64,000 nt of DNA from NCBI GenBank assembly GCA_965220085.1, contig CBDCOZ010000003.1, positions 1,632,001 to 1,696,000 on the forward strand. Reading direction: 5' to 3'. Numbering within the stretch: the stretch's first letter is position 1; every line of letters starts with the position of its first letter. This document shows, one piece after another, positions 37,573 to 62,770 of this stretch. A program made the position numbers and the translations under genes. This DNA comes from Candidatus Oxydemutatoraceae bacterium (lineage in GTDB: Bacteria; Pseudomonadota; Gammaproteobacteria; Poriferisulfidales; Oxydemutatoraceae). Below the pieces are notes generated by a model, which saw only the letters and a program-made list of their open reading frames with translations, searched no databases and was not told where the DNA came from.

Positions 37573-38829
37573 ATGCAAAAATATAACGCCTTGTATGCCC
37601 AATCGGGCGGTGTCACCGCTGTCATTAACGCAACCGCCTGCGGCATCATACAAACCGCCCGCAAACACACCGACCGTATCGGCACAGTATATGCCGCGCG
37701 CAATGGCATTCTCGGCGCTATCCGGGAAGAACTCATCGACACCTCGGCGGAAAGCGATAGCGCGATCGCGGCTCTGAGGCACACGCCGGCGGGCGCATTC
37801 GGATCCTGCCGCTACAAACTAAAAGACATGGATGAAAAAAGGAGCGAATACGAAAGGCTCATAGAAGTATTCAAAGCGCACAACATCGGCTGCTTCTTCT
37901 ACAACGGCGGCGGCGACTCGCAAGACACCACAAACAAGATTGCGCGGTTTGCCAAACACTGCGGCTACCCTCTGACCTGTATCGGCATCCCCAAAACGGT
38001 CGATAACGATCTGCCGCTGACCGACTGCTGCCCCGGATTCGGCACCACCGCAAAGTATGTCGCCGTTTCCGCTCGTGAGATCGCTTTGGACCTCGCGTCT
38101 ATGGATGCGACATCCACCAAAGTCTTCGTGCTGGAAGTGATGGGACGACACGCCGGCTGGATCGCCGCGGCAACCGGGCTTGCGCGCGAAGAAAGCGCCG
38201 ATGCGCCGCATCTCATCCTGTTTCCGGAAATTCCGTTTAATCGGGAAAAGATGCTGGCAAAGGTCAAACATTGCGTTGAGCGCAACGGGCATTGCGTCAT
38301 CGTCACATCCGAGGGCATCCGCAACGAAGCGGGGCAGTTTTTGTCCGAGACCGGCGCCACCGATGCATTCGGCCACGCCCAACTCGGCGGCGTAGCGCCG
38401 ATTATCGCGGAGATGACCCGCAACGAATTCGGCTATAAGTATCACTGGGCGGTCGCCGATTACATGCAGCGCTCGGCGCGCCATATCGCTTCGCGCACCG
38501 ATGTCGAACAAGCCTACGCGCTGGGGCAATACGCCATCACGGCCGCGCTGGACGGAAAACATGCCGTGATGGCCGCAATCGTACGCGACTCCGACGCGCC
38601 TTACACGTGGCACATTGACACGGTGCCGCTAGAAGCGGTTGCAAATCAGGAAAAGAAAATACCGCGCGAGTTTATTGACGACGAAGGGTTTTTTATCATG
38701 CCGGCATGCCGTGACTACCTGCTGCCGTTGATAGCAGGCGAAGATTATCCGCCGTATCAAAACGGTCTGCCGAACTATGTCCGGCTGAAAAACACAGCGG
38801 TAAAAAAGAAACTGCCCGCTCCGGACTGA
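37573..38829 (+). CDS. pfp: 6-phosphofructokinase, probably PPi-dependent
   Basis: QSGGVTAVIN, GGGDS (Asp at the phosphoryl-donor specificity position), PKTVDND, EVMGRHAGW. Confidence 0.85.
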   Translation: MQKYNALYAQSGGVTAVINATACGIIQTARKHTDRIGTVYAARNGILGAIREELIDTSAESDSAIAALRHTPAGAFGSCRYKLKDMDEKRSEYERLIEVFKAHNIGCFFYNGGGDSQDTTNKIARFAKHCGYPLTCIGIPKTVDNDLPLTDCCPGFGTTAKYVAVSAREIALDLASMDATSTKVFVLEVMGRHAGWIAAATGLAREESADAPHLILFPEIPFNREKMLAKVKHCVERNGHCVIVTSEGIRNEAGQFLSETGATDAFGHAQLGGVAPIIAEMTRNEFGYKYHWAVADYMQRSARHIASRTDVEQAYALGQYAITAALDGKHAVMAAIVRDSDAPYTWHIDTVPLEAVANQEKKIPREFIDDEGFFIMPACRDYLLPLIAGEDYPPYQNGLPNYVRLKNTAVKKKLPAPD

Positions 38830-39788: not shown

Positions 39789-41117
39789 TTACATGTTTTC
39801 CACAATCGCATCGCCAAAGCCCGAGGTGGTTACCAGCTTGGCCCCCGGCATCAAACGTTGCAACTCGGTATCCAAATCTTTGCGGCTGCCGACATGGCGC
39901 CAGCCCGCGGATATGCCCCCGCGCACGCGCGCCAGATCATAGGTCACGGTTCTGGCGGCGATAGCGGCGGCGACACCTTTGAGAATCAAATCCGCGGCCT
40001 CGTCCCACCCCATGTGCCTGAGCATCATCTCCGCCGAGAGGATAATGGAGCCCGGATTGACGCGATTCTTATCGGCATACTTGGGAGCGCTGCCGTGCGT
40101 CGCTTCAAACACCGCGATCGTATCCGACATATTGGCGCCCGGCGCGATTCCGATCCCTCCGACCTGCGCGGCGAGGGCGTCGGAAATATAATCGCCATTC
40201 AAGTTTAGAGTCGCGATGACATCGTACTCATCGGGTTTCAGCAATATCTGCTGGAGAAAGTTATCGGCAATAATGTCCTTGATCACAATTTCGCAACCCG
40301 TCAGCGGATTAATAATCTGGCACCACGGCCCGCCGTCTATCGGTTGCGCGCCGAACTCATCGGTAACCACCTCATAGCCCCAGTTGCGAAAAGCCCCTTC
40401 GGTATATTTCATGATATTGCCCTTGTGCACCAGCGATACCGATGTGCGATTATTATCGATCGCATATTGCACCGCCTTGCGCACCAAGCGTTGCGAGCCT
40501 TCCTGCGACACCGGTTTGATACCGACGCCGCAAGATTGCGGAAAGCGGATTTCGGTCACCCCCATCTCCTCAATCAAAAAAGAGAGAACCTTCTTCGCCT
40601 CAGCGGAATCGGCGGGCCACTCGACCCCGGCATAGATGTCTTCGGTATTCTCGCGGAATACGATCATGTCGGTCGTCTCCGAGTCTTTTAACGGCGTCGG
40701 CGTGCCGGGGAAGTAGCGAATCGGTCTGACGCAGGCATACAGGTCCAACTCTTGACGAATAGCCACATTGAGCGAGCGCATCCCTTCGCCGACCGGCGTC
40801 GTCAAAGGGCCTTTGATGGCGACCGCATACTCCTTGATTAAGTCAAAGGTTTCTTGCGGCAACCAGTGTCCGTCGCCGTAGACCGCCACCGCTTTCTCGC
40901 CGGCGTAGATCTCCAACCATTCGATGGCGCGCTCGCCCGCATAGGCTTTCTTGACCGCCGTATCCACGACCAAGCGCATGACCGGCGTCACATCGGAACC
41001 GATGCCATCGCCTTCGATAAAAGGAATGATCGGACAGTCGGGGACTTCCAACCTGCCGTCGCCAAACGCCTTAATCGGATAACCTTGCGCCGGTCTGTTG
41101 ACCTTTTGCCGAACCAT
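39789..41117 (-). CDS. icd: NADP-dependent isocitrate dehydrogenase (dimeric type)
   Basis: [51 protein letters not shown]. Confidence 0.97.
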
Positions 41118-41162
41118 CGGTATCTCGCAGTGTCGTAAGCAAGGTAGCGCTGCGACTACAAC

Positions 41163-42455
41163 TTAGAACTGATCCTCTTCTGTCGAGCCGGATAGCGCGG
41201 TGACAGACGACGCGCCGCCTTGCACGACGGTTGTCACATCGTCAAAGTAGCCGGTGCCGACCTCCGCCTGATGGCTTGAGAAGGTGTAGCCCTTTTCCAA
41301 AGCGGCAAATTCCTTTTCTTGCACCATCTCGACATAGGCTTTCATGCCGTGCTCGACGTAGCCTGCGGACAGGTCAAACATGTGATACCACATATTATGG
41401 ATACCGGCCAAGGTGATGAACTGATACTTATAGCCCATCGCCCCCAACTCGCGCTGGAACTTCCCGATAGTCGCATCGTCCAGATTGCGCTTCCAGTTAA
41501 ACGACGGCGAGCAGTTATATGCGAGCATCTGATCCGGAAACTCCTTGCGGATGGCATCGGCAAACCGCTTCGCCTCATCCAAATCCGGCACAGCGGTTTC
41601 ACACCAGAGCAAGTCCGCATACGGAGCGTAAGACAAACCGCGCGATATCGCCTGATCCAAACCGGCCTTGGTACGGTAGAAACCTTCCGCCGTACGCTCC
41701 CCGGTGACAAACTCTTGGTCTCTGGGGTCGACATCGGAAGTCAGCAAATCCGCCGCATTCGCATCGGTGCGCGCGAGCAACAATGTCGGCACACGACAGA
41801 CATCGGCGGCGAGACGCGCCGCAACCAACTTCTGCACGGCCTCGCCGGTCGGCACCAATACCTTGCCGCCCATGTGGCCGCATTTCTTAACCGACGCCAA
41901 CTGATCTTCAAAATGAACCCCGCCGGCGCCCGCATCTATCATCGCTTTCATCAACTCAAAAGCATTCAGCACCCCGCCAAAGCCCGCTTCGGCATCCGCG
42001 ACGATGGGCGCAAAAAAGTCTTTGCCAGACTCGCCTTTTGCCCAAGCGATCTGGTCGGCGCGGGCAAACGAGTTATTGATCCGCCTCACGACCGCCGGCA
42101 CCGAGTCAGCCGGATACAAGGACTGATCGGGATACATGGATTCGGCAAGGTTCGCATCGGCCGCGACCTGCCAACCCGACAGATAAATCGCCTTCACCCC
42201 GGCCTTTACCTGTTGCAATGCCTGACCGCCGGTCAACGCGCCCAGACAGTTAACGTAAGGCTCGTCGTGTAACAAGCGCCACAATTTCTCGGCGCCGTTT
42301 TTGGCATAAGTAAATTCGGGTTGCACAGACCCGCTTAGCCTGACGACATCTTCGGCCGTATATTCGCGCCTGACACCCTTCCAACGAGGGTTTTCCGCCC
42401 AATCTTTTTCAATAGCGGCAACTAATTGTTTTCTATCCACAGTGACATACTCCAA
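41163..42455 (-). CDS. aceA: Isocitrate lyase
   Basis: [25 protein letters not shown] signature, [16 protein letters not shown]. Confidence 0.98.
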
Positions 42456-42965
42456 GGAAAATTAGAAATACTTTATTAACTGCGGCCTCTGGCAAACCGA
42501 TGAGGCCGACTTGCCGCATATTCTAGCAAACATACCGATATTTGTCGCCTGCCAAAATCCGACCGGAATGATATGCCCGACTCCGCCCGCGCAGCAACGG
42601 AAAAGCGCAAACCCTCTGACGACCCCGTTGCGCCGATACATCCCCGACCGCCTGTTTCCCGGCGTCGCCCCCCGTGATGCCGCCGGATTCATGCCCGTCA
42701 GACGGCTTGCCGCCAAGTTTCATCGATCGCAACAAAGCGACCGACACAGAACCGTCATGACCGCATGCTTCGCGGATGCGGCGCGACACAAACCGCGCCG
42801 ATCTGTGTGACACCCCGCCAAATTGCAAACCGGATATTCCCGGCGGTCACGACTCAACACATCGCCGCTATGGCCGGTTCCGTAATCACATCTTTCCATG
42901 ACCGTGCCGGTGCGCTTGCGGGCGGGCGCGAGAGGAGCATGTGGCGCAAGTCCCGGCGGCTCGCG

Positions 42966-44607
42966 CTACCGCAACGGGCCTTCCAGGAAAAGGCGCAGGC
43001 GCAAGCGCAAGCGTTGCTCCAGATTTATCGTGATGGTGGCGGCATGGGCGCTGGTATTGCGGGTGATGGGTTGGCCAGCGTCATCAAGGTCGCCGCTCGG
43101 TTCATCGCCATCGTCGGTTACTTTGAAGGTGAATGCGGCATAGCCGCTCTGGACGCTCTGCCCGTCCGCCGGCCAGTAGGCGATGGCGCCGATGTTGGCG
43201 GCGGCCACGCGCTGACCGACAGTGGCGTCGGCGCCGCCTACCCGCAGGGTGCCGGCATCCGGCAGGCTGGCAATCTCCACGCTGGCCAAGTTGTCGCCGT
43301 CCTCATCATCAAAGGGAAAGTCTCTGATTGCGAACCTGAAAGGCCGGTTCATCGTGGCATCCGCCGACACATTTATCGTGCGGTCCCGGGGTATGGGCGC
43401 ATCGCTGGCGTTGTGCACCCGGGCGGCGGCGGAGCACAGCCCCGTCACAGTCTCCGGCATGGCGTGAAGATCTCTATAACTGACGCAGACGCGGATGTAC
43501 AGGCCGATATGCTCCAGCATGGGGGTGAATGAATCGCCAGTGGTACCGGGTATGGCGGTGAAAGTGCCGTTTATGGCGGCGGATGACCGCCATTCCCACT
43601 CAAGTGTGCGCAAGTCTATGCCATTGGGCTCCACTATGCCCTCTCTTCTGGCAAACAGTGCGGTATCTTCGGCGTAGGTCGGGGCTTCAACAGCGGTGGG
43701 GTTGCCGGGGTTGGTGACTATGGTGGGCCTGCCGCTGGTGGCAACCTGGGCTGTCGATACCAGACGGATAAAGATTTGGTTGGTGGTTCTGGAGGCCATG
43801 TTGCTGGTGCCATCGCTGCCATCATCGGTCACACCGAAAGCGATGATATCGTACGAGGCATTGGCATCATCAGGGTCGGTGGGTTGCTGGCCCGGCTCCG
43901 GGTAATAGGTCAGAGCGCCGGCATTCAGTTGGGCCACAGTTATGGGGTTTTCGGGGACGGCGGTCAGGGCCGTGCCATTCAGGGCCAGGGTGCCATTATT
44001 GGGCACTCGATTCAGGGTGACACTGGCCAGCATGTCGTTATCGGCATCCTCAAAAGTGAAGTCGGTTGACGGGAGCACATAGGGGTTCGCGGAAGTGGCG
44101 GTGGTCGCCACCGAAATGAAGTTGGCGGTGGGCATCGGCCGGTCATTGATGTTGGCCACGGCGGTGGCTATCTGGTTGCATCGCTGCTCGTCATTGCCGC
44201 CGCTGTCGGTGAACGATGCGCAGACCCGCAGAAACTTGCCCACCTCGTCATCGCCCGGAGTGAAGGCGGCCCTGTCCGCGCCGACGATGTCGGTATAGAT
44301 GCCGCCATTGCTATCGGCCGCACTCCACTGCCAGGCCAGGGTGCCGACCGTGGTGGTTGGCGTATTGTCCGGGTCTTCTATGCCGCCTTGGGATGCGGTG
44401 ATGGCGGAGTCTTCGGTGGGAGCGGCTATGCCGCTGGCGTAGGCGACCATCGGCATGCCGGTAGCATTGTCCTGTGCCTGTGCTTGAGTAGATACGATGA
44501 GGAAAGCGAGCAACAAGAGCGGGCAGAGACCGCACCCGCTCAGGTCAATTCGGCACGGGGGGGGGGGGGGGGGGGGGGGGCATCAGTATTAAAATTTGTT
44601 GTTTCAT
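42966..44607 (-). CDS. LEGPLR-family secreted protein with four Ig/cadherin-like domains; frameshifted by poly-C24 after codon 9 (putative phase-OFF)
   Basis: RBS AGGA and ATG at 44607 give MKQQILILM-P8-VPN-stop. A tract of 3n+2 C would join it to the long ORF (…LLLLAFLIVSTQAQA…RLRLRLFLEGPLR). Confidence 0.8.
44557..44580 (-). repeat. Homopolymer G24 (+) / C24 (coding strand)
   Basis: Counted directly; matches the RGGGGGGGA translation in the ORF track. Confidence 0.9.
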
Positions 44608-44985
44608 ATCTATTATTCCTATGACAGTCTGTATATCACGAATGCAGTCGTGCGATGAGTTCTGCGCACTCTGCCACAAAATGCAAGTCATCTATCAGTT
44701 TCTGTATCTCCTGCTTCTAGCAAATTTAATTATACGTTATATGTCCACAAACTGTTTGCAGACTGTTTAATATTGCACTATACCACAAGTTCGGTCATTT
44801 GCAAATTGGATTGAAATCTAGGTTTTATCTAGGTTTGTGTCGCACTATACCACAAAGTGCGAATCATGCAAGCGCTTGTTTGATGCCATGACATAGCGGA
44901 CATCTGGGGCAGACATTGTGTGTCATTGGCGCTTGCACGGTATCCATGGCAATGCAATCTCAGGATGCGTTGCCTTAAAACCCAT
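44582..44985 (-). promoter_or_regulatory. Promoter/leader cassette, copy C
   Basis: AT-rich block nearly identical to 47379-47780 and (first ~290 bp) 52277-52567. Two TTGTGGTATAGTGC extended -10-like elements (44775-44788, 44842-44855). Confidence 0.75.
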
Positions 44986-45126
44986 GCCGACGCAAGGGTT
45001 CTGGAGCCTGATTCGTTATCCATGGCAATGCGCGCGATGCGCTGCCCTGAAACCCTTGCCAAGACGGGGCTTGCGGTGTGCTATGCCGCCCCCCAGAATA
45101 CTCGCCTGCTCCGCAGATTACTCGCG

Positions 45127-45978
45127 CTATCGCAACGGGCCTTCCAGGAAAAGGCGCAACCGCAAGCGTATATCAGGCGGCAACTGTGTCACCTGATGAG
45201 CGTCTGTGCTACACAGCGGCCCTTCCGATGCGGGCATGGAAAACTGATCCTTGAAAGAAACACAGGCGCGGACGTACCTGCCCAGTTGTGCGGCAGTCGG
45301 TGCGAAATCTGAGGAATAAGTAGCGCCCGCTATGTCGCTGTAAGCACTGGGTGCGGGAACACCGCTGGCGGGGGCGTCGGCCTGTTGCCACTGCCAACTC
45401 AAGGTGCTGACATCAATGCCGTTGAGGTCCGTCACACCGGTGATGGAAGCGCTAATCCGGTGCGTGTCTGTGGCGGTGGCGATTGCGGGCGCGCCGCTGG
45501 CGGCCGTCTGCGCGAGGGCCCCAATCAGATTGATGGTCATGGTGGCCTTGCTATCGACACCCCCAGTCTGTATCGCAAAGGTAAAACTGTCGTAACCGTT
45601 GGCGACAGAGATGGCAGTGACCGGGGGGGTGTAGGAGACACCCTGGCTACTACTCGTTCCGGTGAGGTCAGAGGCGAGGTATATAAATGTCTGACCATCA
45701 CCGTCACCTGCGAGTGCCACCATGATATTGGTCCGGATATCTATCAGCCTGCCATTGGCGGGGTAGGAGAAGACCAGCACAGCGCCACTGGTAAGACCGA
45801 AATCTGCGGCGGTGAAGTAATATGTGCCGCCGCCAATCGGGACATCAACACTCTGGTCTGTCGCCTGGGCATAAACATGGGTTGCGCCCAATGCCAAGGG
45901 CAGAATCAGCAGAATAAGCAACCGACGGCTAAGCCGGGTTAGTGTTCGGGGGGCAGTATCAAAAATTTGGCAGTTCAT
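45127..45978 (-). CDS. LEGPLR-family secreted protein (short leader, N-domain alpha, C-module X)
   Basis: AGGAG RBS before MNCQIFDTAPR; signal peptide ...LALGATHVYA; ends LPPDIRLRLRLFLEGPLR. Confidence 0.85.
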   Translation of the reverse strand: MNCQIFDTAPRTLTRLSRRLLILLILPLALGATHVYAQATDQSVDVPIGGGTYYFTAADFGLTSGAVLVFSYPANGRLIDIRTNIMVALAGDGDGQTFIYLASDLTGTSSSQGVSYTPPVTAISVANGYDSFTFAIQTGGVDSKATMTINLIGALAQTAASGAPAIATATDTHRISASITGVTDLNGIDVSTLSWQWQQADAPASGVPAPSAYSDIAGATYSSDFAPTAAQLGRYVRACVSFKDQFSMPASEGPLCSTDAHQVTQLPPDIRLRLRLFLEGPLR

Positions 45979-46085
45979 AGTATTTCTCCTGATGGTTTGG
46001 GTTTCGTGAATGCGGTTGTGCAATGAGTCGCACCATCTCTTGTGCGCCTCATAACACTCTCCTTTTCCGCCGTAGGTTACTTGCA

Positions 46086-47404
46086 TCATCGCAGGGGGCC
46101 CTCAAGGAAGAGACGCAACCGCAAGCGCAGATTTGAGATGCCGCTATCCGCGCCAGTCTCTATGCCAAAGGTCAGTGTGCCTGTATCGCCGTCTGCGTCG
46201 GTGGCGGTGAGGGTATAGGCGGTCTTGGCAACCGTAGCGGTGGGGGTGCCGCTTATGGTGCGGGTGGCTGCGGTGAAACTGAGGCCCGCGGGCAAGGCCG
46301 GGGTCAGGCTGTATGTGACAGCGCCATTGCCGCCGGTCGCCGCAGGCAGAATCAAGTCGGTGATGGCCTTGCCGGTCACCCAGACCTGATCCGCCACCGA
46401 TGTATTGTCGAAGAAGGGCACATTGGATACCAGTACGCCAGTGCTACACAGCTCTGAGGATGCCGGAGCGGAGAACTGGTCCATGAATGCGGCGCAAACC
46501 CGCAGGTACTTGCTCGCGTGTGCGGCAAGGGGTGTGAAGTTTGAGGAAATTGTGCCTCTGGCAACGGTTATATCGCTGTAGGCACTGATTGCATTGGCGC
46601 CAACGCCTATCACATCGGCCTGCTGCCACTTCCAGGTCAGGGTGGCGACATCAATGCCGTTGGGCTCCGTCACACCGGCGATGGATGCCGTAAGCAGCAC
46701 ACCGGTGTTATAGGCGGTGGCGCCCATGGCGGCCGCAACAGTGGGCGCGCCGCTGGCGGCCGTCTGCGTGGATGCTCCCACCAGATTGATGGTCACGGTG
46801 GCCGTGGTATGGTTGGCACCGACATGCAACTCAAAGATGAAGCTGTCATAACCGTTGGCGACAGAGATGGCAGCGGTCGGGGGCCTGTATTCGACGGTTC
46901 CGACTCCAGTGGAGAACTCAATCGGGAAATATGCATCTGTATTATCGTCATCAACACTTGAAACGCCCACGTCTCGCACAAGACTGGTATCAAATAACCT
47001 GCCATGAGTGGGTTGGGTTTGGAACATCAGTATTTGGGAGTCAAGACCGCCGAAATCTATTTTCCTGAGCACATATCCGTTGCTTCCAATAGTGACATCA
47101 ACACTGGTGTCCGAGGCTTGAGCGTTAGCCTGTGTCGCGCCCAATGCCAGACACAGGACCAACAGGCAACGCATGAGCGGATCCGACCACAGTCCGGCAG
47201 GCAGGCGGACCGCAACAGACCGCAACCACGACAACAGACCGCGCACAGCCGGGCGGCGCGACCGCTTTGCGGATGGCGGGTTGCTATGTGCGGGTGATAA
47301 AAAACGGGTGAGAAGGCGATACGGCGAAACGCCGGCAATCCCCTTACTTACAAAGCTGCGGGGGGGGGGGGGGGGGGTATCAGTATTAAAATTTGTTGTT
47401 TCAT
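46086..47404 (-). CDS. LEGPLR-family secreted protein (long leader, N-domain beta, Ig plus He_PIG-like C-module Y); frameshifted by poly-C18
   Basis: AGGAG RBS and ATG at 47404 give MKQQILILI-P6-AAL-stop; 3n+1 C restores the frame. He_PIG-like LPAGLSF...TISGTPT. Ends NLRLRLRLFLEGPLR. Confidence 0.8.
47360..47377 (-). repeat. Homopolymer G18 / C18
   Basis: Counted directly. Confidence 0.9.
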
Positions 47405-47780
47405 ATCTGTCTCTCCTGTGACAGTCTGTATATCGTGAATGCAGTCGTGCGATGAGTGCGGTGTGCTCTGCACAAAATGCAAGTCATCTATCAGTTTCTG
47501 TATCTCCTGCTTCTAGCAAATTTAATTATACGTTATATGTCCACAAACTGTTTGCAGACTGTTTAATATTGCACTATACCACAAGTTCGGTCATTTGCAA
47601 ATTGGATTGAAATCTAGGTTTTATCTAGGTTTGTGTCGCACTATACCACAAAGTGCGAATCATGCAAGCGCTTGTTTGATGCCATGACATAGCGGACATC
47701 TGGGGCAGACATTGTGTGTCATTGGCGCTTGCACGGTATCCATGGCAATGCAATCTCAGGATGCGTTGCCTTAAAACCCT
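47379..47780 (-). promoter_or_regulatory. Promoter/leader cassette, copy B
   Basis: Near-identical to copies C and A; TTGTGGTATAGTGC at 47571-47584 and 47638-47651. Confidence 0.75.
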
Positions 47781-47853
47781 TGCCAAGACGGGGCTTGCGG
47801 TGTGCTATGCCGGTCCCCAGAATACTCGCCTGCTCCGTCGCAGATTACTCGCG

Positions 47854-49005
47854 CTATCGCAACGGACCCTCAAGAAAGAGCCGCAGCCGCAAGCGCAGAT
47901 TTGAGATGCCGCGATCCGCGCCCGTCTCTATGCCAAAGGTCAGCGTGCTTGTATCGCCGTCTGCGTCGGTGGCGGTGAGAGCATAGGCGGTCTTGGCAAC
48001 CGTAGCGGTGGGGGTGCCGCTGATGGTGCGGGTGGCTGCGGTGAAACTGAGTCCCGCGGGCAGGGCCGGGGTCAGGCTGTACGTGACAGCGCCATTGCCG
48101 CCGGTCGCCGCAGGCAGAACCAGGTCGGTGATGGCCTTGCCGGTCGCCCAGACCTGATCCGCCACCGATGTATTGTCGAAGAAGGGCACATTGGATACCA
48201 GTACGCCAGCGCTACACAGCGGCCCTTCCGATGCGGGCGTGGAGAACTGGTCCATGAATGCGGCGCAAACCCGCAGGTACTTGCTCGCGTGTGCGGCAAG
48301 GGGTGTGAAGTTTGAGGAAATTGTGCCTGTGACAGTGGTTATATCGCTGTAGGCGCTGATTGCATTGGCGCCAATGCCTATAATATCGGCCTGCTGCCAC
48401 TTCCATGCCAGAGTGCCGACATTGATGCCGTTGGGCTCAGTCACACCTGTGATGGAGGCAACCAGCGGCACACCGGTGTTATAGGCGGTGGCGGTTGTGG
48501 CGGCCGCAACAGTGGGCGCGCCGGTAGCGGTCATCTGCGTGAGTGCCCCCACCATGTTGATGGTCACGGTGGCCGTGGTATGGTTGCCACCGACATGCAA
48601 CTCAAAGATGAAGCTGTCATAACCGCTGACGACAGAGATGGCAGTGGCCGGGGGCCTGTATTCGACACGATGGGTTCCGCCAGAGAAATCGATCGGGAAA
48701 TATCCATCCGCCTGATCGCCATAAACACTTGAAACCGCCACGTCTCGCATATCATTGGTATTATACAACCTGCCATGAGTGGGTTGGGTTTGGTATCTCA
48801 GTGTTTGGGAAACAAAACCGCCGATATCTGTTTTCTCGAGTGTATACCCACTGCTTCCAATAGCGACATCAACACTGGTGTCCGAGGCTTGAGCGTTGGC
48901 CTGTGTCGCGCCCAATGCCAAGGGCAGAATCAGCGACCAGCGGCTAAGCCGCGTCATCGTTGCCCGCCGGTGCCGGGGGGCGGTATCAGAAATTGGGTAG
49001 TTCAT
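47854..49005 (-). CDS. LEGPLR-family secreted protein (short leader, N-domain beta, C-module Y)
   Basis: AAGGAG RBS, MNYPISDTAPR...LALGATQANA; C-half nearly identical to the 46086 gene; same terminal motif. Confidence 0.85.
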   Translation of the reverse strand: MNYPISDTAPRHRRATMTRLSRWSLILPLALGATQANAQASDTSVDVAIGSSGYTLEKTDIGGFVSQTLRYQTQPTHGRLYNTNDMRDVAVSSVYGDQADGYFPIDFSGGTHRVEYRPPATAISVVSGYDSFIFELHVGGNHTTATVTINMVGALTQMTATGAPTVAAATTATAYNTGVPLVASITGVTEPNGINVGTLAWKWQQADIIGIGANAISAYSDITTVTGTISSNFTPLAAHASKYLRVCAAFMDQFSTPASEGPLCSAGVLVSNVPFFDNTSVADQVWATGKAITDLVLPAATGGNGAVTYSLTPALPAGLSFTAATRTISGTPTATVAKTAYALTATDADGDTSTLTFGIETGADRGISNLRLRLRLFLEGPLR

Positions 49006-49112
49006 CGTATTTCTCCTTCTGGTTTGGGTTTCGTGAATGCGGTTGTGCAATGAGTCGCACCATCTCTTGTGCGCCTCATAACATTCTCCTTTTCCGCCGT
49101 AGGTTACTCGCA

Positions 49113-49979
49113 TCATCGCAACGGGCCCTCAAGAAAGAGGCGCAACCGCAAGCGTATATCAGGCGGCAACTCTGTCACCTGAGTGCCGGCGCTACACAGC
49201 GGCCCTTCCGGTTCCGGCGTGTCATGCTGATCCATAAAAGAAACACAGGCGCGCACATACCTGCCCAGTTGGGCGGCAGTCGGTGCGAAGAGGGAAGAAG
49301 TGGCATCCTCTATGTCAACAATGTAGTCGCTGGGTGCGGGAACACCGCTGGCGGGGGCGTCGGCCTGTTGCCACTGCCAGCTTAGGGTGCCGACATCAAT
49401 GCCGTTGAGGTCCGTCACACCGGTGATGGAAGCGCTGATCCGGTGCGTGTCTGTGGCGGTGGTGATTTTGGGCGCGCCGCTGGCGTCCGTCTGCGTGGAT
49501 GCGCCCACCAGATTGATGGTCATGGTGGCCCTGATATGGTTGCCGAAGGAACGTGTCTCAAAGATGAAGCTGTCGTAACCGTTGACGACAGAGACGGCAG
49601 CGGCCGGGGGCCTGTACTCCATAGTACCGGTTCCGCCGGAGCCGGTGAAATCGGCGCTCCAGAAATGTGCATCCCCGCCATCATCATCACCTAAAACGTC
49701 CACGTCTCGGTTAAGAGAGACATTAAACACCCTGCCATGAGTGGGTTGGGAGTAGAGATACAAAGTTCCATGGGTGGATCCAAAACCGCCGAAATCTGTA
49801 CGCTTAAATACATATGCGCCGCCAATCGGGACATTAACACTGCTGGCTTGAGCTTGAGCGTTGGCCTGTGTCGCGCCCAATGCCAAGGGCAGAATCAGCA
49901 GAATAAGCGACCGGCGGCTAAGCCGGGTCATCGTTGTCCGCCAGCACCGGGGGGCAGTATCAAAAATTTGGCAGTTCAT
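49113..49979 (-). CDS. LEGPLR-family secreted protein (short leader, N-domain gamma, C-module X)
   Basis: AGGAG RBS, MNCQIFDTAPR leader, same terminal motif. Confidence 0.85.
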   Translation of the reverse strand: MNCQIFDTAPRCWRTTMTRLSRRSLILLILPLALGATQANAQAQASSVNVPIGGAYVFKRTDFGGFGSTHGTLYLYSQPTHGRVFNVSLNRDVDVLGDDDGGDAHFWSADFTGSGGTGTMEYRPPAAAVSVVNGYDSFIFETRSFGNHIRATMTINLVGASTQTDASGAPKITTATDTHRISASITGVTDLNGIDVGTLSWQWQQADAPASGVPAPSDYIVDIEDATSSLFAPTAAQLGRYVRACVSFMDQHDTPEPEGPLCSAGTQVTELPPDIRLRLRLFLEGPLR

Positions 49980-51698
49980 AGTATTTCTCCTAATGGTTTG
50001 GGTTTCGTGAATGCGGTTGCAATGAGTCGCACCATAAACAATCCGCAAACAGTTGATGGAGCACAATACTTAATTGTTTGTGCCTCATTAAATGTTGCTT
50101 GTGTACATAACTCACAAAGCGCAAGTCATCCACAAGTATCTTTGTATCCTGTCTCATCCTCTTGTGCACCTCATAACTATCCTTCTCCGCAGCTACGCAC
50201 TACCGCAACGGGCCTTCAAGGAAAAGGCGCAGGCGCAGGCGTATATCAGGCGGTAGCTCTGTCACCCGAGTGCCGGCGCTACACAGCGGCCCTTCCGGTT
50301 CCGGCGTGTCATGCTGATCCATAAAAGAAACACAGGCGCGCACATACCTGCCCAGTTGGGCGGCAGTCGGTGCGAAGAGGGAAGAAGTGGCATCCTCTAT
50401 GTCAACAATGTAGTCGCTGGGTGCGGGAACACCGCTGGCGGGGGCGTCGGCCTGTTGCCACTGCCAGCTTAGGGTGCCGACATCAATGCCGTTGAGGTCC
50501 GTCACACCGGTGATGGAAGCGCTAATCCGGTGCGTGTCTGTGGCGGTGGTGATTTTGGGCGCGCCGGTAGCGGCCGTCTGCGTGGATGCTCCCACCAGGT
50601 TGATGGTCATGGTGGCCATCGTATCGACACCCCCAGTCAGTATCGAAAAGGTAAAACTGTCGTAACCGTTGGCGACAGAGATGGCAGTGGCCGGGGGTGT
50701 GTAGGAGACACCCTGGCTGTTAGCCGTTCCGGTGAGGTCAAAAGCGAAGTATGCAAACGTCTGACCATCACCGTCACCTGCGAGTGCCACCATGATATTG
50801 TTCCGGATATCTATCAGCCTGCCATTGGCGGGGTGGGAGAAGAACCGCACAGCGCCACTGGTAAGACCGAAATCTGCGGCAGTAAAGTAATATGTGCTGC
50901 CGCCAATCGGGACATTAACACTCTGGTCCGTCGCCTGGGCATAAACATAGGTTGCGCCCAATGCCAAGGGCAGAATCAGCAGAATAAGCGACCGGCGGCT
51001 AAGCCGGGTCATCGTTGTCCGCCAGCACCGGGGGGCAGTATCAAAAATTTGGCAGTTCATAGTATTTCTCCTAATGGTTTGGGTTTCGTGAATGCGGTTG
51101 CAATGAGTCGCACCATAAACAATCCGCAAACAGCTGATGGAGCACAATACTTAATTGTTTGTGCCTCATTAAATGTTGCTTGTGTACATAACTCACAAAG
51201 CGCAAGTCATCCACAAGTATCTTTGTATCCTGTCTCATCCTCTTGTGCACCTCATAACTATCCTTCTCCGCAGCTACGCACTACCGCAACGGGCCTTCAA
51301 GGAAAAGGCGCAGGCGCAGGCGTATATCAGGCGGTAGCTCTGTCACCCGAGTGCCGGCGCTACACAGCGGCCCTTCCGGTTCCGGCGTGTCATGCTGATC
51401 CATAAAAGAAACACAGGCGCGCACATACCTGCCCAGTTGGGCGGCAGTCGGTGCGAAGAGGGAAGAAGTGGCATCCTCTATGTCAACAATGTAGGCGATG
51501 GGTGCGGGAACACCGCTGGCGGGGGCGTCGGCCTGTTGCCACTGCCAGATTAGGGTACCGACATCAATGCCGTTGAGGTCCGTCACACCGGTGATGGAAG
51601 CGCTAATCCGGTGCGTGTCTGTGGCGGTGGTGATTTTGGGCGCGCCGGTAGCGGCCGTCTGCGTGGATGCCCCAACCATGTTGATGGTCATGGTGGCC
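49873..51698. repeat. ~745-bp near-identical direct repeat pair (49873-50617 and 50954-51698, offset 1081)
   Basis: Each copy spans C-module X, the intergenic region and the leader of the next gene; only a few substitutions visible. Confidence 0.9.
50200..51060 (-). CDS. LEGPLR-family secreted protein (short leader, N-domain alpha, C-module X)
   Basis: AGGAG RBS; N-domain close to the 45127 gene, C-module close to the 49113 and 51281 genes. Confidence 0.85.
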   Translation of the reverse strand: MNCQIFDTAPRCWRTTMTRLSRRSLILLILPLALGATYVYAQATDQSVNVPIGGSTYYFTAADFGLTSGAVRFFSHPANGRLIDIRNNIMVALAGDGDGQTFAYFAFDLTGTANSQGVSYTPPATAISVANGYDSFTFSILTGGVDTMATMTINLVGASTQTAATGAPKITTATDTHRISASITGVTDLNGIDVGTLSWQWQQADAPASGVPAPSDYIVDIEDATSSLFAPTAAQLGRYVRACVSFMDQHDTPEPEGPLCSAGTRVTELPPDIRLRLRLFLEGPLR

Positions 51699-52302
51699 GT
51701 GGTCTCGACGCCACCTCTAAGTATCACGAAGATGAAGCTGTCATAACCGTTGACGTCAGAGATGGCAGCGGTCGGGGGCCTGTATTCGATATCACCGGTT
51801 CCGCCAGAACCAGAGAAATCGCCCCAGAAATATGTATCCAAAAAGCCATCATCAACACCTGAAACGGCCAAGTTTTCGTTAAGAGAGACATCAAACACCC
51901 TGCCATGAGTGGGTTGGGTGTAGAGAAACAAACTTCTGCCGGATCCAAAACCGCCGAAATCCGTACGCTTGAATACATATGCGCCGCCAATCGGGACATT
52001 AACACTGCTGGCTTGAGCCTGAGCGTTGGCCTGGGTTGCGCCCAATGCCAGGCACAGGGCCAGCAGGCAACGCATGAGCGGACCCGACCACAGTCCGGCG
52101 GGCAGGCGGACCGCAACAGACCGCAGCCACAACAACAGACCGCGCACAGCCGGGCGGCGCGACCGCTTTGCGGATGGCGGGTTGCGATGTGCGGGTGATA
52201 AAAAGCGGGTGAGAAGGCGATACGGCGATACGCCGGCAATCCCCTTACTTACAAGGCTGCGGGGGGGGGGGGGGGTATCAGTATTAAAATTTGTTGTTTC
52301 AT
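51281..52302 (-). CDS. LEGPLR-family secreted protein (long leader, N-domain gamma, C-module X); frameshifted by poly-C15
   Basis: AGGAG RBS and ATG at 52302 give MKQQILILI-P5-AAL-stop; 3n+1 C restores the frame. The longer ORF start at 52381 has no evident RBS. Confidence 0.8.
52261..52275 (-). repeat. Homopolymer G15 / C15
   Basis: Counted directly. Confidence 0.9.
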
Positions 52303-52567
52303 ATCTATCTCTCCTATGACAGTCTGTATATCGTGAATGCAGTCGTGCGATGAGTTCTGCGCACTCTGCCACAAAATGCAAGTCATCTATCAGTTTCTGT
52401 ATCTCCTGCTTCTAGCAAATTTAATTATACGTTATATGTCCACAAACTGTTTGCAGACTGTTTAATATTGCACTATACCACAAGTTCGGTCATTTGCAAA
52501 TTGGATTGAAATCTAGGTTTTATCTAGGTTTGTGTCGCACTATACCACAAAGTGCGAATCATGCAAG
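52277..52567 (-). promoter_or_regulatory. Promoter/leader cassette, copy A
   Basis: Near-identical to copies B and C; TTGTGGTATAGTGC at 52470-52483 and 52537-52550. Confidence 0.75.
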
Positions 52568-52642
52568 TGCCTTTGTATCCTGCCTCTCTCCCCTTGTGTG
52601 CGCCCCCAGAATACTCGCCTGCTCCGCCGCCGGGTATTCGCA

Positions 52643-52740
52643 TTATCGCAGGGGACCTTCAAGGAAGAGGCGCAGGCGCAAGCGTATATCAGGCGGCAAC
52701 TCTGCCACCAGACTGCCTGTGCTACACAGCGGCCTTTCGG
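52643..52740 (-). pseudogene. 3' relic of a LEGPLR-family gene
   Basis: Only ~32 codons (PERPLCSTGSLVAELPPDIRLRLRLFLEGPLR-stop) match the family; the upstream part has no signal peptide or family similarity. Confidence 0.75.
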
Positions 52741-52938
52741 GGCGGGCACCTCCGGCGGGGATAGCGCGGAAATAGGCGGTATTGCTACCTCCGCCGCTTT
52801 TGCCGTGTGAAAATAGCGATTCGGCATCGCCGTTTTGCGACACCTTCCGTTGGCCGGGTAGCGTCGGGTATGTCGGTCCCGACTCTGAGTACGGGTATAT
52901 AATGGCGATAACATTTTCCACTACGGGACATCTCAATC

Positions 52939-53421
52939 ATGGATTACAAAACTGCGGATTTATGCGACCGGCGCTCCGACACCCTCTCCGTTGCCAGCCC
53001 CGGCCGGATGAGAGACTTTGGCGGCAAAAATATTTTTAGCGGTGTTATTGAAACAGTCAAGTGTTTTGAAGATAACTCTTTTGTGCGCCGCGCGCTTGAA
53101 ACCGACGGTACCGGCAAGGCGCTGGTCGTCGATGGCGACGGTTCTATGCGTTGCGCTTTGCTCGGAGACATCCTCGCCGCGCTGGCGGTTAAGAATCATT
53201 GGCGCGGCATTGTCGTCAATGGTTGTATTCGGGATTCGCAACTGATAGGGGAGTTGCCGCTTGGCGTCAAAGCCCTTGCCACAAACCCGCTTAAAAGCGT
53301 CAAAAACAATGTCGGCGAACACAATGTCGCGGTGGAATTCTGCGATGTGCGCTTTGTGCCCGGTCACTGGCTGTTTGCCGATGCCGACGGCATCGTTCTA
53401 TCGCCGGACAAACCGGAATAA
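52939..53421 (+). CDS. rraA: RraA-like protein / HMG aldolase family
   Basis: TADLCD, FGG...FSG.IETVKCFEDNS, LVVDGDGS.RCALLGD, GCIRD, ADADGI. Confidence 0.92.
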   Translation: MDYKTADLCDRRSDTLSVASPGRMRDFGGKNIFSGVIETVKCFEDNSFVRRALETDGTGKALVVDGDGSMRCALLGDILAALAVKNHWRGIVVNGCIRDSQLIGELPLGVKALATNPLKSVKNNVGEHNVAVEFCDVRFVPGHWLFADADGIVLSPDKPE

Positions 53422-61432: not shown

Positions 61433-62770
61433 ATGGCGACAAAGAAGCGAAAACCAGTACGCAAAAGACAACCCTCAACGAAGAAATTGACACGCGGGAA
61501 GAAGGCGGCGCGCAAAAAGGCAACCAAGCGCAAGACCGTTGCCGCTACAAAGAAGGCAACGCGCAAGAAGGTAACCAAGCGCAAGACCGTTGCCGCTACA
61601 AAGAAGGCAACGCGCAAAAAGGCAACCAAGCGCAAGACCGTTGCCGCTACAAAGAAGGCAACGCGCAAGAAGGTAACCAAGCGCAAGACCGTTGCCGCTA
61701 CAAAGAAGGCAACGCGCAAGAAGGCAACCAAGCGCAAGACCGCTGCCGCTACGAAGAAGGCAACGCGCAAAAAGGTCACCAAGCGCAAGACCTCTGCCGC
61801 TACAAAGAAGGTAGCACGCAAGAAGGTCACCAAGCGCAAGACCGCTGCCGCTACGAAGAAGGCAACGCGCAAAAAGGTCACCAAGCGCAAGACCTCTGCC
61901 GCTACAAAGAAGGTAGCACGCAAGAAGGTAACCAAGCGCAAGACCTCTGCCGTCAAAAAGAGGGCAACGCGCAAGAAGGTAACCAAGCGCAAGACCGTTG
62001 CCGTCAAAAAGAAGGCAACGCGCAAAAAGGTAACCAAGCGCAAGACCTCCGCCGCCAAAAAGAGGGTCACGCGCAAAAAAGTAACCAAGCGCAAGACCTC
62101 CGCTACTAAAAAGAGGGTCACGCGCAAAAAAGTAACCAAGCGCAAGACCTCTGCTACCAAAAAGAGGGTCACGCGCAAAAAAGTAACCAAGCGCAAGACC
62201 TCCGCTACCAAAAAGAGGGTCACGCGCAAAAAAGTAACCAAGCGCAAGACCTCTGCTACCAAAAAGAGGGTCACGCGCAAGAAGGCGCCGCAGAAGAAAA
62301 GAGCCGCATCCGGCCGGAAGGCAACGGCGGCACCCGCAAAGAAATCAAGCGCCAGAATGATTGCGTCGGCAAAGAAGGCGCGGAAAACGCATTCTCGCCA
62401 CTATATGACGCCAAAACAACTGGAGATGTTCAAAGAGAAGCTCATTGCATGGAAAAAAGAACTGATGCAAGAGGCGGACCGAACCGTCGTGCATATGCAG
62501 GAAGAGTCATCGACTTTTGCCGACTCAAATGACCGCGCAACGCAAGAAGAAGAATTCGGACGCGAACTAAAAAGCCGCGACCGGGAAAGAAAGTTGATTA
62601 AAAAGATAAATGAAGCGCTGATGCGGATAGACAACCATGAATTTGGCTACTGCGAAGAGTGCGCGGCGCCGATCGGTATCACGAGGCTGACCGCCCGTCC
62701 TATCACCACCATGTGCATAGACTGCAAGACCTTGGCCGAAGTGATGGAAAAGCAAGCCTCCCATGTTTAA
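61433..62770 (+). CDS. dksA: DksA with a ~300-aa N-terminal Lys/Arg/Thr/Ala histone-like repeat extension
   Basis: C-terminal ~125 aa: YMTPKQLEMF, DSNDRATQEEE (DxxDxA tip), 4-Cys finger CEEC...RLTARP...CIDCK. Continuous frame from MATKKRK. Confidence 0.9.
   Translation: MATKKRKPVRKRQPSTKKLTRGKKAARKKATKRKTVAATKKATRKKVTKRKTVAATKKATRKKATKRKTVAATKKATRKKVTKRKTVAATKKATRKKATKRKTAAATKKATRKKVTKRKTSAATKKVARKKVTKRKTAAATKKATRKKVTKRKTSAATKKVARKKVTKRKTSAVKKRATRKKVTKRKTVAVKKKATRKKVTKRKTSAAKKRVTRKKVTKRKTSATKKRVTRKKVTKRKTSATKKRVTRKKVTKRKTSATKKRVTRKKVTKRKTSATKKRVTRKKAPQKKRAASGRKATAAPAKKSSARMIASAKKARKTHSRHYMTPKQLEMFKEKLIAWKKELMQEADRTVVHMQEESSTFADSNDRATQEEEFGRELKSRDRERKLIKKINEALMRIDNHEFGYCEECAAPIGITRLTARPITTMCIDCKTLAEVMEKQASHV
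61499..62283 (+). repeat. ~15.4 x 51-bp coding tandem repeat (17 aa, KKATRKKVTKRKTxAAT)
   Basis: 15 occurrences of TKRKT at a 17-aa period, with gradual drift along the array. Confidence 0.95.

Follow-up and report, generated by a model that had tools for sequence, protein, structure and literature searches.

The 64,000-nucleotide (nt) stretch analyzed here, referred to as the window, belongs to contig CBDCOZ010000003.1 of a Candidatus Oxydemutatoraceae bacterium (assembly GCA_965220085.1) and contains seven paralogous genes arranged in three co-directional units of one (unit 1), two (unit 2), and four (unit 3) genes. In each unit, a long homopolymeric C tract stands between a short leader and the remainder of the first gene; every tract, leader, and unit gene lies on the minus strand of the window. 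The tracts measure 24 C in unit 1 (44557 to 44580), 18 C in unit 2 (47360 to 47377), and 15 C in unit 3 (52261 to 52275), and they are the only three C/G runs of at least 9 nt in the window, for which shuffled sequences gave an expectation of 0.37 nine-mers. Each belongs to a leader containing the 26-nt sequence ATGAAACAACAAATTTTAATACTGAT, which occurs three times in the window with 0 mismatches (0 copies expected) and has its ATG at 44607, 47404, or 52302. The distance is constant, as all three tracts start 27 nt past the leader ATG. The resulting leaders of nine codons occupy 44581 to 44607 in unit 1 (MKQQILILM), 47378 to 47404 in unit 2 (MKQQILILI), and 52276 to 52302 in unit 3.

In the assembled sequence, the leader frame yields the products MKQQILILMPPPPPPPPVPN (unit 1), MKQQILILIPPPPPPAAL (unit 2), and MKQQILILIPPPPPAAL (unit 3), each closed by a stop that is the fourth codon beyond the tract, with three codons between: TGA at 44545 to 44547, TAA at 47348 to 47350, and TAA at 52249 to 52251, respectively. 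The numbers of open codons in the three frames past the tract are 3, 529, and 4 in unit 1, 3, 4, and 423 in unit 2, and 3, 4, and 325 in unit 3. Exactly one frame per tract reaches a signal peptide and protein, and the other two close in 3 to 4 codons. Joining the leader to this open reading frame (ORF) requires 3n+2 C in unit 1 and 3n+1 C in units 2 and 3. A sequence-only reading of this DNA had reported tracts of C24, C18, and C15 behind identical leaders with a ribosome-binding site and ATG, an in-frame stop four codons past each tract, and a need for 3n+2 C in the 42966 gene and 3n+1 C in the other two. The tracts and the three exact leader copies, the leader-frame translations, and the open-frame counts reproduce these claims in turn. 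It had also called all three genes OFF; they are out of frame as assembled, a state that stands or falls with the homopolymer lengths given by a single assembly.

Each leader is preceded by a cassette of about 200 nt, present in three copies that all end in a Shine-Dalgarno (SD)-like site and the leader, and a 46-nt stretch of the upstream cassette has exactly three exact copies in the window. The predicted promoter and 5′ untranslated region (UTR) extend over 44608 to 44805 in unit 1, with AGGAAT 8 nt before the ATG, over 47405 to 47602 in unit 2, with AGGAGA before the ATG, and over 52303 to 52500 in unit 3. The unit 1 cassette contains a putative sigma-70-like site, TTGCAA-16 nt-TATAGT with an extended TG (44804 to 44777), recognized by its match to the consensus and with the -10 hexamer at 44782 to 44777. 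Homologous sites are present in the cassettes of units 2 and 3 (-10 hexamers at 47578 to 47573 and 52477 to 52472, respectively), which gives each ATG a predicted 5′ UTR of about 165 nt. No Rfam match at an E value of ≤0.1 was obtained for the region from 42500 to 53000. Just upstream of the unit 3 cassette, on the minus strand, is an orphan piece from the 3′ end of a family gene (52643 to 52936, ending in LCSTGSLVAELPPDIRLRLRLFLEGPLR and a stop), which suggests that family members have been rearranged in the past.

All seven genes downstream encode a signal peptide and share the C-terminal end RLRLRLFLEGPLR, directly followed by the stop codon. The unit 1 ORF (42966 to 44555) comprises 529 codons counted from the first base past the tract and contains CRIDLSGCGLCPLLLLAFLIVSTQAQA/QD.. 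and two repeat modules before this end. The first gene of unit 2 (46086 to 47357; 423 codons from the tract) has a long leader, SFVSKGIAGVSPYRLL.., then MRCLLVLCLALGATQANA, a He_PIG domain, and the C-terminal tag, and the second (45127 to 45978) has the tag and a fixed leader, MNCQIFDTAPR.., whose homologous site holds a run of six C (C6). Unit 3 begins with a gene of 325 codons from the tract (51281 to 52258), with a long leader and the tag, and continues with three more tagged genes that have fixed C6 leaders and ATGs at 51060, 49979, and 49005 (47854 to 51060 in total). A terminator-like hairpin in the signal-peptide region of unit 1 (44541 to 44517) was taken as a chance structure because homologous leaders elsewhere, inspected by eye, look unable to form it.

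Members of the family with no tract indicate how the leader relates to the protein. They read as one ORF from the same leader through the tract site into the signal peptide, as in MNRQIFNTAPHWRATLARLGLRSLILPALFVLCAQAQA and MNRQIFDTRPRSLVNKGIAG.., and the fixed paralogue MNRQIFDTRPRSLVNKGIAG.. shares its frame with the open frame of units 2 and 3. For the long-leader class of units 2 and 3, the fixed example MNRQIFDTRPRSLVNKGIAGISARFLSPAHRNPP..ALGATCAWA has no internal methionine and likewise uses the frame taken as open in those units. The C6 site GATACTGCCCCCCGG (≤2 mismatches) has four matches in the window, at 45946, 48973, 49947, and 51028, which belong to the four internal genes; an alignment shows the homology of these genes to extend over UTR and leader as far as the tract, and it sets the C6 sites opposite the tracts. 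Since the paralogues with a short C run read from ATG through leader to signal peptide unbroken, the leader ATG is best regarded as the real start and the tract as an expansion within the coding region. The sequence-only reading had likewise placed a run of about C6 in short-leader paralogues and called the tract a specific expansion; both points agree with the four aligned sites and with the unbroken ORFs of paralogues whose C run is short and interrupted. The leader motif is nearly exclusive to ORFs with the C-terminal tag (30 with the tag, 4 without it). The tracts are pure CCC, while elsewhere CCC makes up only 22 to 35% of proline codons and CCG is preferred, and the one other run of at least four prolines in the ORFs behind tracts contains no CCC. 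The tract is therefore maintained or produced at the level of DNA rather than selected to encode proline. By these comparisons, the tract appears to lie in a translated ORF, in which a change of ±1 nt would shift the frame.

The arrangement extends far beyond the window. The genome (2,492,841 bp, 3 contigs, 55.8% G+C) contains 90 C/G runs of 9 to 28 nt with a mean length of 18.9, as opposed to two A/T runs of 9 nt and none longer. Run lengths are bimodal, with 10 runs of 8 nt, 4 of 9 nt, and 1 of 10 nt, followed by a second mode at 17 to 22 nt and a maximum of 28 nt. An ORF of at least 150 codons directly follows 88 of the 90 runs when they are read as C and 9 of the 90 when they are read as G, compared to 1,985 of 5,000 random positions; C is on the sense strand at all 88 of these loci, which we call gated. 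The three sites of the window are thus 3 of 88 such gates in the genome, and the scope of the sequence-only reading was too small. One frame is open and both others shut within 10 codons at 63 of the 90 tracts, versus 218 of 5,000 random positions. Off-frame stops occur at a median of 5 codons past the tract (148/176 within 10 codons), versus a median of 24 codons when counted from positions inside these genes (133/466). A hydrophobic core followed by AxA lies within 120 residues past the tract in 79 of the 88 ORFs. An ATG is present 15 to 34 nt upstream of the tract, with no intervening stop, at 65 of the 88 loci (consensus M-(N/K)-x-(Q/K)-x-F-N-T), and an SD-like 4-mer precedes it in 40 of these 65, versus 66 of 852 background ATGs. 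Clustering by BLAST placed 87 of the 88 gated products, whose median length is 460 amino acids, in a single cluster, and 83 of the 88 end in the tag. Gated genes tend to head their arrays (63 of 100 first genes versus 20 of 86 later genes), and therefore the earlier description of the tract as a property of the first gene of each unit generalizes. With regard to replication, 44 gated genes on contig C3 are co-oriented and 32 are head-on, which gives no clear signal.

Several observations bear indirectly on whether the tracts are hypermutable, among them the lengths of 24, 18, and 15 C in the three window cassettes and the bimodal spectrum described above. Five pairs of near-identical cassettes, with 200-nt upstream flanks at least 97% identical, differ in tract length in all five cases, by 2 to 9 nt; on these comparisons, tract lengths diverge faster than their flanks. 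In the assembly, 16 of the 65 loci with a leader ATG have the length that joins the leader to the ORF (ON), 30 need a change of -1 nt, and 19 need a change of +1 nt. The ON share is not different from one in three (P = 0.15), and it is therefore unremarkable that all three units of the window are OFF. An excerpt of a study of Campylobacter jejuni reports a 10-fold rise in mutability when a tract was lengthened from G8 to G11 (PMC3401435). Measured against what that excerpt states, tracts of 15 to 28 C would be far above lengths already known to be hypermutable.

The C-terminal tag has 14 residues, (L/I)RLRLR(L/I/V)FLEGPLR, and ends 218 stop-to-stop ORFs in this genome. Those of at least 150 residues number 186, including giants of 4,009 to 15,193 amino acids, and add up to 489 kb, or 19.6% of the genome. 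Wobble positions within the tag are variable, which indicates constraint at the protein level rather than at the DNA level. The tag ends the protein, and no hydrophobic helix follows it; NCBIfam sorting-domain models (PEP-CTERM, GlyGly-CTERM, and LPXTG type) gave no match to the seven window proteins at an E value of ≤0.1. The proteins end 14 residues past their last immunoglobulin (Ig)-like domain, and among Pfam families no C-terminal beta-barrel of the autotransporter type was found. The tag may be a new sorting or anchoring signal, and it may act as an amphipathic strand of positive charge by which the proteins are held at the outer membrane. P0062, an outside homologue of the unit 1 modules, has no tag and has an end that looks, by eye, like an autotransporter barrel, a hint that in this genome the tag stands in for a barrel anchor.

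The remainder of the proteins can be placed more broadly. Two of the seven window proteins contain PF05345 (He_PIG), with scores of 46.4 and 43.1 bits (cutoff, 24), and the remaining five have no Pfam match at an E value of ≤0.1. Homologues of one internal gene number 47 among 5.8 billion proteins, and 12 of these 47 carry precomputed Pfam Ig or cadherin families, 10 of them being paralogues from this same genome outside the window. An AlphaFold2 model of this internal gene, with 24 of the 47 homologues as input, has two beta-sandwich domains (mean predicted local distance difference test [pLDDT] score, 84.3) and an unstructured tag (pLDDT, ∼55). Foldseek returned nine matches to the model at an E value of ≤1e-3, all of them multidomain receptor ectodomains of the Ig superfamily or fibronectin type, with TM-scores of at most 0.30, and a profile of the 24 homologues had 0 matches among PDB sequences at an E value of ≤0.01. 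A phmmer search with the unit 1 protein returned 5,080 proteins at an E value of ≤1e-3, mostly giant repeat proteins, many with tens of repeats, and the passenger modules are accordingly assigned to the widespread cadherin-like/Ig class of adhesin repeats. By this resemblance, the window proteins are putative adhesins.

A DNA pattern for the tag occurs 211 times here, 0 times in a reversed control, and in none of 52 other genomes of the order, a comparison set that comprises four families (f1, 18 genomes; f2, 16; f3, 17; and f4, 1). Of the 47 homologues of the internal gene, 45 are from this genome and the other two (P0029 and P0042) are on ENA metagenome contigs. The 26-nt leader and a degenerate tag pattern each had 0 matches in metagenome contigs, and the unit 1 protein had 45 pattern matches in genome contigs, none of which was confirmed as a relative. 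The leader motif of this genome was absent from all 30 relatives scanned, but this motif is too strict a criterion, as relatives often contain plain C12 runs. In these separately assembled genomes, runs of at least C12 are found in 15 of 18 f1 genomes and 16 of 16 f2 genomes, and in 0 of 17 f3 genomes, which are tiny, and 0 of 1 f4 genome. Five relatives have 8 to 45 tracts of at least 15 C each (locus L134, G008:C1:1320196-1323211, is an example), and one tract is 70 nt long. Inspection of 30 of 88 tracts in relatives found 15 abutting an open frame of at least 150 codons, about 8 of which start like a signal peptide as judged by eye; the leader sequences linked to these tracts differ from those of this genome. 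Long C tracts are a lineage habit in f1 and f2, and this genome is the extreme case with its own standard cassette. SecA has at most 58% identity to unclassified Gammaproteobacteria among the best 80 loci, which indicates only a deep proteobacterial branch.

We consider it probable, from the conserved anatomy of the gates, that the tracts mediate slipped-strand translational phase variation of a very large family of Ig-like surface proteins. The tract would serve as a hypermutable homopolymer between a conserved leader of eight to nine codons and the rest of the signal peptide, and translation would initiate at the SD site and ATG of the leader. In one of the three length classes, the tract would be read as five to nine prolines, followed by the signal peptide and protein (ON), and in the other two, translation would stop within a few codons (OFF). 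Replication slippage would alter the tract by ±1 nt, and each gene should therefore switch stochastically and independently. Since about 88 genes of the superfamily share the gate, clonal populations should show many combinations of surface proteins. We infer variation in tract length within populations, a surface location for the proteins, and reduced expression of downstream genes when the first gene is OFF. The earlier proposal of slipped-strand ON/OFF control of three adhesin units fits this anatomy; the polarity on downstream genes and the adhesin role that it included are still conjectural.

Several observations weigh against phase variation and are considered here together with four other explanations of the tracts. 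The ON share of 16/65 fits drift and also fits pure noise in homopolymer calling. Short assembled contigs from three public runs of one study end at the tracts: they are cut at 44548 to 44591, one ends at 52277, at the edge of the C15 tract, and no contig bridges any tract. Such breaks follow from heterogeneous lengths and equally from trouble in sequencing homopolymers. Moreover, mutS and mutL are intact. It is conceivable that the tracts are real and have fixed in-frame lengths that encode a polyproline segment of the signal peptide, the frameshifts being miscalls with no switching. An assembly in three contigs, despite repeat-family 12-mers at 65 to 70 copies, would suggest long reads, and such assemblies miscall runs of 15 to 28 nt; the random-looking ON share and the failure of the public contigs to cross the tracts agree with this. 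However, a fixed polyproline would not need pure CCC in a genome that prefers CCG, and selection for stops within about five codons in both off frames is sensible only if these frames are often read. The differences of 2 to 9 nt between near-identical cassettes are beyond a miscall of ±1 nt, and tracts of 15 to 28 C exceed by far the hypermutable lengths given in the cited excerpt of PMC3401435. We regard an assembly artifact as unlikely on these grounds.

Other observations concern the position of the start codon. The tract might instead belong to the 5′ UTR or an upstream ORF, with translation starting downstream (at the MRCLL ATG or GTG 47246 in units 2 and 3 and at TTG 44516 in unit 1) and tract length tuning transcription or the fate of the mRNA. 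The tract and the hydrophobic core of units 2 and 3 are separated by about 85 codons of leader, SLVSKGIAGVSPYRLLTRFLSPAHRNPPSAKRSRRP.., which hold an internal ATG (MRCLL..) that alone yields a complete minimal signal peptide; leaky expression from this ATG, independent of the tract, is possible judging from the sequence. The frame of this long-leader class is always open in its 13 loci, and nucleotide diversity there is flat over the codon positions (0.293, 0.335, and 0.299), with no third-position excess; the long leader's amino acid sequence is thus without visible constraint, and only openness seems to be selected. Further, 23 of the 88 loci have no ATG 15 to 34 nt upstream of the tract, and only half of the tracts inspected in relatives (15/30) abut an open frame of at least 150 codons. 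On the other hand, the frame is open from the tract itself in 88 of 90 loci, and the fixed paralogues with no internal methionine must use the leader ATG. Sites of the AGGAG type precede the leader ATGs, but no AGGA, GGAG, or GAGG was seen within 20 nt before the MRCLL ATG, GTG 47246, or TTG 44516. In unit 1, the frame from the tract to the hydrophobic core contains no ATG and no GTG, and its sole other candidate start, TTG 44516, lies inside the core and would give a signal peptide without a charged n-region. In unit 3, the long ORF is, at C15, in frame with an upstream TTG (52381), before which none of the three SD-like words was seen. The absence of Rfam matches also speaks against a UTR element, and with the promoter-like -10 hexamer about 200 nt upstream, the tract cannot alter the spacing between the -35 and -10 elements. 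A downstream start strikes us as improbable in view of this evidence.

Slippage could also take place at the RNA level, with RNA polymerase or the ribosome (on CCC codons) slipping over 15 to 28 C, so that mixed frames give graded, constitutive expression. Transcriptional slippage at long homopolymers is established in the excerpts of two reports (PMC5574713 and PMC4256274), the tracts are much longer than those of classic contingency loci, and efp is present and intact. Against this, transcription insertions in Escherichia coli and Buchnera prevailed in A and T runs, as far as the excerpt of PMC5574713 states, and at such lengths RNA slippage would add to DNA slippage rather than replace it, which makes an RNA rheostat in place of switching very unlikely. 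Least probable of all, and hardly credible to us, is a recombination device: the G run of the template strand, acting with the conserved 5′ leader and 3′ tag, would stimulate family members to undergo gene conversion or to exchange cassettes, and frames would switch as a by-product. In favor of it, a G-quadruplex could form in a run of at least 15 G, about 186 genes share DNA-level conservation of their 5′ and 3′ ends, and the orphan fragment at 52643 to 52936 would be in keeping with exchange. Nevertheless, the wobble variation of the tag points to constraint on the protein, and the off-frame stops are left unexplained.

Beyond phase variation itself, we offer more tentatively, as a possibility we find somewhat doubtful, that an undescribed, self-contained surface-diversifying system is made up of the leader, poly-C gate, and (RL)3-FLEGPLR tag: 186 secreted Ig-like proteins encoded by about one-fifth of the genome, 83 to 88 of them gated, with a new sorting or anchoring signal. 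If this were true, the modal tract of 17 to 22 nt would be so long that each cell expresses a near-random third of the set, and the system would be the largest single-family homopolymer phasome known to us.

The surroundings of the array were noted as well. Its neighbors at 37573 to 38829 (plus strand) and 39789 to 42455 (minus strand) encode pyrophosphate-dependent phosphofructokinase, NADP isocitrate dehydrogenase, and isocitrate lyase, and the dcw cell division cluster lies at 8.5 to 24 kb of the window. The gene at 61433 to 62770 (plus strand) encodes DksA (residues 308 to 442) joined at its N-terminal side to a lysine-rich tandem repeat; the repeat (KKATRKKVTKRKT..; about 300 residues) looks like histone H1 and accounts for the strong AT skew at 61 to 63 kb. 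Elsewhere in the genome, the 12-mers of one repeat family occur in 65 to 70 copies each, and this family is probably an insertion sequence. No word resembling a DNA uptake sequence or uptake signal sequence stands out among the repeated words of the whole genome.

Several known systems resemble the gates in part. In Neisseria, the repeat of opa genes is in the region coding for the leader peptide, and pilC has a poly-G tract in the signal-peptide region. As in opa and pilC, each member of a surface-protein family here has its own slippage repeat in the signal-peptide coding region, which allows independent frame switching. There is no sequence relation, however, and the repeat is a C homopolymer of 9 to 28 nt instead of CTCTT units or about 10 to 13 G. 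About 88 gated genes encode Ig-like repeat proteins with a new tag, as opposed to beta-barrels from 11 phase-variable opa genes in Neisseria (excerpt of PMC11868660). G/C homopolymers in the reading frames of surface-related genes are also found in C. jejuni, where strain NCTC11168 has 29 loci with G/C runs of at least 7 nt (excerpt of PMC4965091) and the tracts have a modal length of 9 and a mutability that rises with length (excerpt of PMC3401435). The present genome differs in having 90 runs of at least 9 nt, with a mode of 17 to 22 nt, that have C on the sense strand and occupy one fixed place in the shared leader of one family; the presence of mismatch repair genes is a further difference. 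The poly-C tract of the Gardnerella sialidase gene NanH3 reportedly undergoes slipped-strand mispairing. Gardnerella likewise has many G/C homopolymers tied to surface-protein genes, with a median of 20 tracts of at least 8 nt per genome, a mean length of about 10 nt, and about 70% of them in putative promoters, according to an excerpt of a preprint (bioRxiv 10.1101/2023.01.13.523976). In contrast, the tracts described here are in a coding leader, are about twice as long and four to five times as numerous, and belong to a host that is proteobacterial by marker genes. The passenger modules are homologous to those of cadherin-like, He_PIG, and Big_9 repeat adhesins, including autotransporter forms, but the proteins are short (gated median, 460 amino acids) and have a tag, not a barrel, at the C terminus.

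That homopolymer slippage can cause phase variation is textbook knowledge, and the phasomes described so far consist of tens of heterogeneous loci with tracts of about 8 to 13 nt. A literature search that excluded supplements found no description of the family, the tag, or a comparable set of poly-C gates, and a query with LEGPLR gave one unrelated match. The mechanism is known; the literature searched has no account of it at this scale, with tracts this long, or in such a standard cassette. Here, one standard cassette (SD site and ATG, a leader of eight to nine codons, a run of C, and a stop in each of the off frames) is used about 88 times, the tracts are twice the usual length, and the mismatch repair genes are intact. 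Automatic annotation will label most gated genes as pseudogenes or set their starts incorrectly. If switching is confirmed, this genome would offer a natural system for what sets the equilibrium length of a tract, a test of the limits of combinatorial surface variation, and a handle on a new C-terminal tag common to 186 secreted proteins.

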